A stretch of 3,658 bases of DNA from Escherichia coli (GTDB taxonomy: Bacteria > Pseudomonadota > Gammaproteobacteria > Enterobacterales > Enterobacteriaceae). The notes below the pieces were generated by a model. That model searched no databases. It was not told where the DNA came from and saw nothing but the letters and a program-made list of their open reading frames with translations. The DNA lies in the NCBI RefSeq assembly GCF_003334815.1, contig NZ_QOWO01000081.1; one strand, given 5' to 3'. Position numbers and translations under genes: made by a program. Positions 2 to 696 of the stretch are shown here, in pieces; positions within the stretch are counted from its first letter, which is position 1, and the number at the start of each line of letters is the position of its first letter.

Positions 2-391
2 ATCCGGCCACGATCACGCCAGTGGTGGCAGTTATTCAGGATGGTGTCTCAGTGGCATGTTGATGTGGTTATCGTTGAGCGGCGTTCGTTCAGTATTGTT
101 GCAGCAGTAGAGCTGGATGATGCCAGCCATTTACGACCTGAACGCAGACGCCGGGATATTCTTCTGGAAGAGGTTCTGAGGCAGGCTGGTATTCCGTTGC
201 TCAGAAGCCACGATGCCAGAAAACTGCTGCAGATGACCGGAGAATGGCTGGATACCTTCAGAACAGATCTCCAGTCAGAACCGGGAAGCAGCAGGAGCGA
301 AAATATGCATCGGTTTACGCGTCAGCATCAGGTGTCAGAAACAGCGGTACGGAAGGTGAAAAGTGATTCCTGTATGGAGGGCAATAAATGA
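2..391 (+). CDS. Hypothetical protein, C-terminal portion; the reading frame is open to the left window edge, so the true start is probably upstream of the window
   Basis: Frame +2 has no stop from position 2 to the TGA at 389-391. The first in-window ATG (41) has no well-spaced Shine-Dalgarno. The stop overlaps the next ORF's ATG (ATGA at 388-391). The stretch DVVIVERRSFSIVAAVELDDASH resembles a nuclease-fold-like strand/acidic/His signature (my recollection of DUF2726-like proteins; unverified). Confidence 0.5.
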   Translation: MRPRSRQWWQLFRMVSQWHVDVVIVERRSFSIVAAVELDDASHLRPERRRRDILLEEVLRQAGIPLLRSHDARKLLQMTGEWLDTFRTDLQSEPGSSRSENMHRFTRQHQVSETAVRKVKSDSCMEGNK

Positions 392-696
392 TAGTTCCCG
401 TCGACGCAGAGCGTGATGAGCAGGGGTACTGGACGCATCCTGCACTGTCAGGCAGCGGCTGTGAGAGCGCTGCAGACTTTCATGACTGGCTGAGCTCACA
501 AGGGCTGCAGTGCTTTGTTATGTGCATGTGTGATGAAGCGCCAGAGCTTTTTTCTGTCAGGTCTGGCGGGGAGGAGCCTGATGCGCGTGACTGGATGCCG
601 GAGCCGCCAGATGATGATGGCTGGTTCCTGGGATCTGTCCATGATACCCGCTACGGGCCTGCCTGTTACTGGTTACGTCATATCAAAACGGGCTGA
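388..696 (+). CDS. Hypothetical small acidic, Cys/Trp-containing protein (102 aa), translationally coupled to the upstream ORF
   Basis: ATG at 388 is preceded by GGAGG (376-380) at 7 nt spacing. ATGA start/stop overlap with the upstream ORF. Codon usage is enterobacterial-like. No family recognised with confidence. Confidence 0.55.
   Translation: MIVPVDAERDEQGYWTHPALSGSGCESAADFHDWLSSQGLQCFVMCMCDEAPELFSVRSGGEEPDARDWMPEPPDDDGWFLGSVHDTRYGPACYWLRHIKTG

Follow-up and report, generated by a model that had tools for sequence, protein, structure and literature searches.

In a 3,658-nt stretch of Escherichia coli DNA (contig NZ_QOWO01000081.1 of assembly GCF_003334815.1; hereafter the window, at its full length), two overlapping open reading frames, ORF1 and ORF2, precede a hok/sok toxin-antitoxin locus. 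Our analyses showed that ORF2, which encodes a small and strongly acidic protein of 102 aa, is a fresh member of a catalogued family (PHROG 1372) whose domain is a modular piece of phage and plasmid accessory regions. ORF1 encodes a DUF2726 protein and is an ordinary backbone gene of F-like plasmids, and ORF2 is not the dedicated partner of this predicted nuclease but probably an independent module. The ORF2 product is a compact acidic domain with conserved aromatic residues, best read as cytoplasmic. As for its role, the reading we prefer, with a probability of roughly 0.4, is one of counter-defence or host manipulation: ORF2 would be a stand-alone module that binds or inhibits a host or rival factor engaged in the handling of nucleic acids or nucleotides.

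The ORF1 frame, read directly from the sequence, is open from base 2 and free of stops until the TGA at 389-391 on the plus strand, and ORF2 follows on the same strand from an ATG at 388-390 to a TGA at 694-696. The ATGA overlap and the translational coupling proposed in an initial annotation, which was made from the sequence of the window, were borne out by the overlap itself together with a GGAGG Shine-Dalgarno motif ahead of ORF2 (Table 1); each of the eight pairs compared has a GGAG motif at this site. The window holds only the 129 C-terminal codons of the 228-codon ORF1 gene, and these are identical to residues 100-228 of the corresponding protein of plasmid NZ_CP117333 (L001; 99.6% identical). 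Judging from the gene in that plasmid (4705-5391; 687 nt, 228 aa), the start of ORF1 lies approximately 296 nt beyond the left edge of the window, and the ATG at position 41 is internal to the gene and not its start. Both frames are more than chance open reading frames, as is evident from the DUF2726 match of ORF1 and from the relatives, the substitution pattern and the confident predicted fold of ORF2, and public plasmid records already annotate the two genes as 'DUF2726 domain-containing protein' and 'hypothetical protein', respectively. The earlier description of the pair as uncharacterised, and as the least explained reading frames of the window, holds for ORF2, for which Pfam, NCBIfam and PADLOC searches returned no match, but not for ORF1, a YihA/DUF2726 protein.

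ORF2 is a real coding gene under purifying selection. Relative to the Klebsiella orthologues, the ratio of non-synonymous to synonymous substitution rates (dN/dS) is approximately 0.23 at a synonymous divergence (dS) of approximately 0.9, and the ratio ranges from 0.23 to 0.46. The protein has an isoelectric point (pI) of 4.27, with 19 Asp and Glu residues against 6 Lys and Arg, a net charge of -13, five Cys and five Trp, in agreement with the initial picture of a small, very acidic protein with a Cys cluster and several Trp. Profile searches and structure prediction, both suggested in the initial annotation, were informative for ORF2: PHROG 1372 matched it over its full length (residues 2-101, E-value 2.8e-25), and AlphaFold, run with a 52-sequence alignment, folded it confidently into an alpha/beta domain (predicted local distance difference test score, pLDDT, 89.8; predicted template-modelling score, pTM, 0.81). 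The residues that mark PHROG 1372 are all present in the window copy (R9, G13, W15, H17, P18, W69, P71, P74, W79, F80, G90, P91 and W95), and the family as a whole can be summarized by the pattern RD..G.W.HP ... W.P..P.G.GWF..S.HDT.DGP.C.W.R. Family-wide conservation is seen at R9, D10, H17 and P18, and each of the five Trp residues of the window protein is kept in 81-100% of the members. Acidity is likewise shared by the family, whose median pI is 4.2 and in which 87% of the proteins lie below 5; the conserved acidic positions are few (D10, E50, D77 and D86), the remaining charge being compositional. A Foldseek search against AFDB50 returned only members of the same family, labelled 'prophage protein' or 'uncharacterized', at template-modelling scores of 0.75-0.95, whereas neither a sequence search nor a fold search of the PDB gave a match or a neighbour among solved structures. 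A search of the literature on the family found nothing.

The Cys cluster CFVMCMCDE, which the initial annotation had singled out as notable, turned out to be lineage-specific. An E. coli lineage that is 95% identical reads CFVMTMWDE and Klebsiella reads CFVMTMRDE at this site, and Cys is found at positions 25, 42, 46 and 48 in only 19%, 27%, 8% and 6% of the family, respectively, compared with 79% at position 93. A metal or zinc site at the cluster was ruled out, since its Cys residues are not conserved in the family. A catalytic triad of H17, D86 and C93 was also considered and rejected; since 21% of the members have another residue in place of Cys93, ORF2 is without a convincing catalytic set.

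The relatives of ORF2 are widespread. A word-indexed search gave 53 clusters, mostly of 102 aa, in Escherichia, Klebsiella, Enterobacter, Citrobacter and Salmonella, all of them 'hypothetical', and an exhaustive HMMER search gave 441 family representatives at E <= 0.001 (clusters at 50% identity), which are either stand-alone proteins of approximately 100-120 aa or domains within proteins of 150-520 aa. With tblastn, relatives were found in 81 phage records, mostly of temperate or plasmid-prophage types and again all 'hypothetical'; in the phage contexts inspected (five of five) they lie among early or accessory genes. The relative in the P1-like phage D6, orf96, overlaps its neighbours by 4 nt and adjoins ppp, those in the lambdoid phages mEp460 and mEp213 are placed between repressor and integrase, and ORF48 of PY54 is grouped with exonuclease genes, a methyltransferase gene and a gene that is Lar-like. 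Further relatives occur in the Burkholderia phages phiE125 and phi1026b and in Klebsiella phage LASTA. A prophage paralogue of the mEp460 type is present, mostly on the chromosome, in 809 of 5,426 complete E. coli genomes, and in F-like plasmids of Enterobacter and E. coli another paralogue, with approximately 37% identity, is found in the interval from traW to traU, overlapping traU by 4 nt. This second paralogue belongs to an island of four to five small unannotated reading frames between the two tra genes (2412-4306 in locus L005 and 2158-3806 in L009). In addition, a metagenomic orthologue (L013, 4362-4667) carries a short internal out-of-frame stretch, GTGRIRRMSG, in place of GYWSHPAYVRSG; it stems either from two frameshifts that compensate each other or from a fault in the assembly.

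The domain also occurs in fusions. When 72 multidomain representatives of the family were scanned against Pfam, about a dozen had a partner known to Pfam: an Rv2179c-like exoribonuclease in two proteins, Lar in two, and, once each, RdgC, a Tad2-like domain, a dATP/dGTP pyrophosphohydrolase (MazG-like), DHH/DHHA1, T2SSE and a DnaJ-type zinc finger, to which a second Pfam batch added single fusions with KTSC, TrwB-like and winged helix-turn-helix (wHTH) domains. A PHROG scan of ten fusion proteins assigned all partner families to 'unknown function', and one protein was found to contain the ORF2 domain twice. These contexts bear on the possibility that ORF2 is an adaptor or regulator of the element's own DNA processing, that is, of conjugative transfer, replication or recombination. 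The paralogue inside the tra operon, the fusions with RdgC, TrwB-like, T2SSE and wHTH domains and the position of ORF2 beside the replication control region would all suit such a role, which we nevertheless regard as unlikely, as ORF2 is missing from F, from R100-type plasmids and from most other E. coli IncFII plasmids, while 3,712 of the 4,895 plasmid records that match this region (positions 1-800) are typed as conjugative, and as relatives reside in many unrelated phages with different replication and packaging systems.

For ORF1, the profile searches pointed to a nuclease fold. The Pfam family DUF2726 (PF10881) matched residues 59-170 with an E-value of 1.4e-20 (73.8 bits), and REase_MTES_1575 was a second Pfam match at 2.2e-4; the PADLOC, NCBIfam and PDB sequence searches with ORF1 gave nothing useful. 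The top Foldseek matches of the predicted structure were BstEII, TnsA and a protein with a restriction-endonuclease-like fold, none of them at E <= 0.001. The full-length protein is very basic (pI 10.7) and has an N-terminal hydrophobic or transmembrane helix (MKLIIFILIVLIIAALLIRIIL). The E. coli and Klebsiella orthologues, with an overall identity of just 55%, share the motifs HVDVV and VELDDASH, and the only changes in this core between lineages are V/C and V/I swaps adjoining the candidate catalytic residues. The acidic and His residues of the core constitute a candidate active site with a presumed catalytic role, and ORF1 is presumably a membrane-anchored DNA nuclease, as far as can be judged from its sequence. 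DUF2726 has been assigned computationally to the restriction-endonuclease-fold (PD-(D/E)xK) families in a fold survey, where it is grouped with Vsr/DUF559 (PMC3424549), and it has been described, again by computational assignment, as a DNase domain of this fold in conflict systems (PMC3710099). Our literature search on DUF2726 found only fold surveys and plasmid annotations. To our knowledge, no DUF2726 protein has a known biochemical activity.

In contrast to the domain, the C-terminal tail of ORF1 appears to be unconstrained, with a dN/dS of approximately 1.07 as compared with 0.37 in the domain, and its length and sequence vary among lineages. In the fused ORF1-ORF2 model discussed below, pLDDT drops to 52 and then 37 at construct residues 181-200 (ORF1 residues 210-228 and the first linker residue). 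The tail looks like a spacer that holds the ribosome-binding site of ORF2. We also considered whether it is left over from the 180-aa gene found ahead of ORF2 in loci L014 and L024 (see below); this was rejected, as neither DNA nor protein similarity was found. Some plasmid annotations use the name yihA for this gene, which clashes with the chromosomal GTPase YihA/EngB. One paper (PMC4155114) enters the YihA (DUF2726) protein of plasmid pRS218 under cell signalling with the label 'putative GTP binding protein', which appears to result from this clash.

Is the pair an obligate unit? The suggestion that it might be conserved as such proved true of many Klebsiella F-type plasmids but not as a general rule. 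Homologues of ORF2 were found by tblastn in 2,053 plasmid records, approximately 1,500 of which are from Klebsiella at 60-80% identity, and DUF2726 lies beneath nearly all of the ORF2 matches listed among the plasmid records. Every Klebsiella F-type locus fetched (six in total) has both the 4-nt ATGA overlap and the GGAG motif. Because pairing with a 4-nt overlap is so widespread in Klebsiella, the paired state is old and probably ancestral for F-like plasmids. On the other hand, DUF2726 is present without ORF2 in F-like plasmids of Salmonella, and in L014 (Enterobacter) and L024 (E. coli IncFIC) an ORF2 orthologue with 70% identity overlaps a different gene by 4 nt, DUF2726 being located 220 nt further upstream. 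The different gene encodes a 180-aa membrane protein with N-terminal hydrophobic segments, unrelated to DUF2726 and without a recorded Pfam match (gene and ORF2 orthologue together at L014 3830-4677 and L024 962-1809).

The two genes have also diverged independently. Between the Klebsiella loci L006 and L007, ORF1 is 93% identical and ORF2 only 62%, and the L006 allele of ORF2 is as near to the E. coli alleles (61-66%) as to that of L007. Across L006, L007 and L020-L023, dS is saturated in ORF2 and only 0.6 in ORF1; identities in the same six loci are 50-62% for ORF2 as against 86-93% for the neighbouring ORF1. This uncoupled divergence suggests that ORF2 alleles have been swapped by recombination, like cassettes and independently of ORF1. 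An AlphaFold model in which ORF1 (residues 30-228) was fused through a linker to ORF2 had two confident domains, an overall pTM of 0.52 and no docking; such a value is as expected for two bodies that are not placed relative to each other, and, given that the alignment was partly paired, the linker artificial and the model read without the predicted aligned error, we take it as a weak negative.

These data weigh on the hypothesis of a nuclease-inhibitor pair, in which the acidic ORF2 product would neutralise the basic DUF2726 nuclease in the manner of barstar or the colicin immunity proteins. The coupled arrangement with its conserved Shine-Dalgarno motif, the opposite charges (pI 10.7 and 4.27) and the adjacency kept in approximately 1,500 Klebsiella plasmid records, with nearly all listed matches over DUF2726, are what one would expect of such a pair. 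However, 4-nt overlaps are the usual style of these operons (traU and ppp are further examples), an intact DUF2726 core is found without ORF2 in the Salmonella plasmids and, with only 12 exceptions, in the 4,895 matching records, the orthologues in L014 and L024 are coupled to another gene, and the ORF2 family mostly has no DUF2726 nearby, none of the 72 fusion proteins containing it. With identities of 93% and 62% for the two genes and an interface unsupported in the fused model, nuclease-immunity pairing found no support in distribution, co-divergence or structural modelling, and we rejected it as quite improbable.

A further hypothesis is that ORF2 is specifically a DNA mimic like Ocr or ArdA, which would block type I restriction-modification or other DNA-binding defence enzymes. 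The initial annotation had mentioned DNA mimicry or anti-defence as a speculation, and the idea has gained circumstantial support: a net charge of -13 over 102 aa, acidity kept throughout the family, positions in early phage regions, and relatives fused with Tad2-like domains or fused to or beside Lar restriction-alleviation domains. Homology to ArdA or Ocr was not found; Pfam, including its ArdA and Ocr entries, gave no match, and neither did the PDB by sequence or by fold. Moreover, few of the acidic positions are conserved, and the strictly kept Trp, Pro and Gly residues are more suggestive of a hydrophobic interface or pocket than of an imitation of the DNA phosphates. We therefore consider mimicry of this specific kind a poor prospect.

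The region of ORF2 is polymorphic in E. coli plasmids. Positions 1-800 of the window are matched by the 4,895 plasmid records mentioned above, of which only 12 cover at least 80% of this stretch, and the ORF2 segment is present in 12 of 5,426 complete E. coli genomes. In the other matching records, positions 256-690 give way to approximately 35 nt that look unrelated, and in this short form an intact DUF2726 gene of 196 aa uses as its stop codon the TGA with which ORF2 closes in the window. As the Klebsiella outgroups have the long form, the short IncFII form looks derived and the long form older. We looked for a clean deletion junction or microhomology at 256-690, but the approximately 35 replacing nucleotides gave no convincing alignment. 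Truncated or frameshifted homologues of ORF2 exist (P0023, P0026, P0029, P0041 and L013); to this extent, damaged homologues, which the initial annotation would have counted against its view, do occur, and most E. coli IncFII plasmids are without the gene, although the frame in the window is intact. That ORF2 is a dispensable and decaying passenger with no current function in this backbone, as its loss from most E. coli relatives through the 435-nt replacement, its rarity in complete genomes and these damaged homologues might suggest, is very unlikely, since the frame is intact and its 102-aa length does not change among lineages with 50-100% identity, dN/dS lies between 0.23 and 0.46, and the window copy retains all conserved residues of the family.

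We return to the preferred reading of ORF2 as an independent binding or inhibitor module. ORF2 would be translated from its own GGAGG motif and/or by termination and reinitiation at the ATGA, next to a gene for a basic, membrane-anchored DUF2726 protein that is presumed to be a DNA nuclease. Its product would be non-enzymatic and without a dedicated partner, a PHROG 1372 domain that moves and recombines independently, and it may inhibit, or act as a decoy for, a factor of nucleic-acid handling or defence that belongs to the host or to a rival. The support for an inhibitor role, namely genomic position, fusion partners and acidity, is circumstantial, and several observations weigh against it. 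No annotated homologue or experiment was found that links the family to a function; PADLOC-DB, a collection of defence rather than anti-defence proteins, had no family matched by ORF2 (or by ORF1) at E <= 1; and the fusion partners are diverse and mostly of unassigned function, so that guilt by association is weak. Most E. coli IncFII plasmids dispense with ORF2. The anti-defence genes of plasmids are mostly concentrated in the leading region, and ORF2 lies outside it, at what we take to be the end of the plasmid that enters the recipient last. Expression was low in plasmid pBIC1a, with 13 normalised reads for yihA and 35 for the next hypothetical gene (PMC6286996), which is the probable ORF2 orthologue by synteny alone.

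A broader version of the preferred reading is that PHROG 1372 represents an undescribed family for anti-defence or host takeover, with a previously unseen fold, in temperate phages, where it would belong to early operons, and in F-like plasmids across Proteobacteria; within this version, the acidic protein could inhibit a conserved host component of nucleic-acid or nucleotide-signalling defence or act as its decoy, combined in some relatives with Lar, Tad2-like or nuclease domains. We regard this as possible but doubtful. The confidences that we attach to all of the readings sum to less than 1, the remainder standing for something else, and no unusual mechanism is demonstrated by the present analysis.

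The window as a whole is a segment of an IncFII-type (F-like) plasmid, in which the pair ends an accessory operon located between finO and the hok/sok-repA region. In related plasmids, the upstream order is traX, finO, accessory genes, a thermonuclease-family gene, hha, the DUF2726 gene and ORF2. The finO-repA region of F-like plasmids collects nuclease-like genes, namely those of the thermonuclease family, DUF2726 and a phospholipase D (PLD)/Nuc-family endonuclease; the comparison loci L006-L008, L014, L020-L022 and L024 include one with a PIN-domain protein as well, downstream of ORF2. In the lineage of the window, hok/sok occupies the position of the PLD gene. Between ORF2 and hok/sok, a GC-rich hairpin followed by UUUUU is probably an intrinsic terminator that closes the operon, as its sequence suggests; it was not reported by a simple terminator scan, and its sequence is kept in plasmids without ORF2. 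The 82-aa replication regulatory protein RepA further downstream is presumably the copB/repA2 product of the older literature.

Table 1. Coordinates of features in the window and of the compared Klebsiella pairs (L numbers are our handles for comparison loci)
Feature	Position	Strand	Basis or remark
ORF1, 3' 129 codons of a yihA-like gene	2-391	+	Pfam DUF2726; identity to L001
Conserved nuclease-fold core of ORF1, H-V-D-V-V-I-V ... V-E-L-D-D-A-S-H	56-130	+	Comparison of orthologues
Variable C-terminal tail of ORF1 (aa 184-228), containing the ribosome-binding site of ORF2	254-387	+	dN/dS; comparison of lineages
ORF1 tail and all of ORF2, replaced by approximately 35 nt in mainstream E. coli IncFII plasmids	256-690	+	Comparison with L002 3256-3295
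GGAGG Shine-Dalgarno motif of ORF2, 7 nt 5' of its ATG	376-380	+	Read from sequence
ATGA, ORF2 start over ORF1 stop	388-391	+	Read from sequence; same in L001, L006, L007, L010 and L020-L023
ORF2, acidic Trp-rich single-domain protein of 102 aa, PHROG 1372	388-696	+	Profile match, conservation, predicted fold
Cys cluster CFVMCMCDE (ORF2 residues 42-50)	511-537	+	Lineage-specific
GC-rich hairpin and UUUUU between ORF2 and hok/sok	721-770	+	Minimum free energy -24.7 kcal/mol, z-score only -1.6
sok of a hok/sok-type type I toxin-antitoxin locus	830-985		Rfam, 83.8 bits
Sigma-70-like promoter, fits the sok promoter	969-940	-
Hok-family reading frame	975-1124		hok/sok locus; mok-like overlapping leader frame ends at 978
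Replication regulatory protein RepA, 82 aa	1408-1656
CopA antisense RNA	1794-1885	-	Rfam, 101.9 bits
repA1	1958-2827		Standard IncFII replication control module (1408-2827)
Klebsiella pairs L006, L007, L020-L023 (positions of those loci)	ORF1 854-1504 or 2854-3504; ORF2 1501-1809 or 3501-3809

ORF2 is one copy of a large domain family that has neither a Pfam entry nor a solved structure; approximately 15% of complete E. coli genomes contain its prophage paralogue, and many Klebsiella IncFII(K) resistance plasmids carry the plasmid form. The genomic positions and fusion partners make ORF2 a reasonable candidate for anti-defence or host-manipulation screens, and the natural variation in its presence between the F-type plasmids of Klebsiella and those of E. 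coli offers ready-made isogenic comparisons. If it does inhibit a defence system, the family would help to explain the host-range differences of clinically important F-type plasmids; if it does not, ORF2 would be an ordinary accessory gene.

Among known systems, ORF2 resembles the inhibitors of the Ocr, ArdA and UGI type in its small size, its strong acidity, its origin from mobile elements and its apparent lack of enzymatic function, but it has no sequence or fold relationship to them, and any mimicry of DNA would be hypothetical. The arrangement of a basic nuclease-like gene followed by a coupled small acidic gene recalls barnase-barstar, the colicin DNase-Im pairs and type II toxin-antitoxin systems; it differs from nuclease-immunity pairs in that the co-occurrence of ORF1 and ORF2 is not obligate, their evolution is independent and no interface is predicted. 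The anti-defence domains Lar (PF14354) and Tad2-like (PF11195) are fused to, or encoded near, some relatives of ORF2, whereas ORF2 itself has neither domain; the link is purely one of association. ORF1 is like other plasmid YihA/DUF2726 proteins in keeping the D...E-x-D-x-x-x-H core and in having its gene behind hha in the finO-repA2 interval, a slot that it also fills in other F-like plasmids, but it is longer here (228 aa as compared with 196), with an unconstrained tail that overlaps the downstream gene. ORF2 is also akin to the 'prophage protein' domain of PHROG 1372 and 20322, with which it shares a full-length match, the residue pattern and the predicted fold; in contrast to these relatives, the copy in the window resides on a plasmid, directly 3' of a DUF2726 gene, and carries a Cys cluster specific to its lineage.

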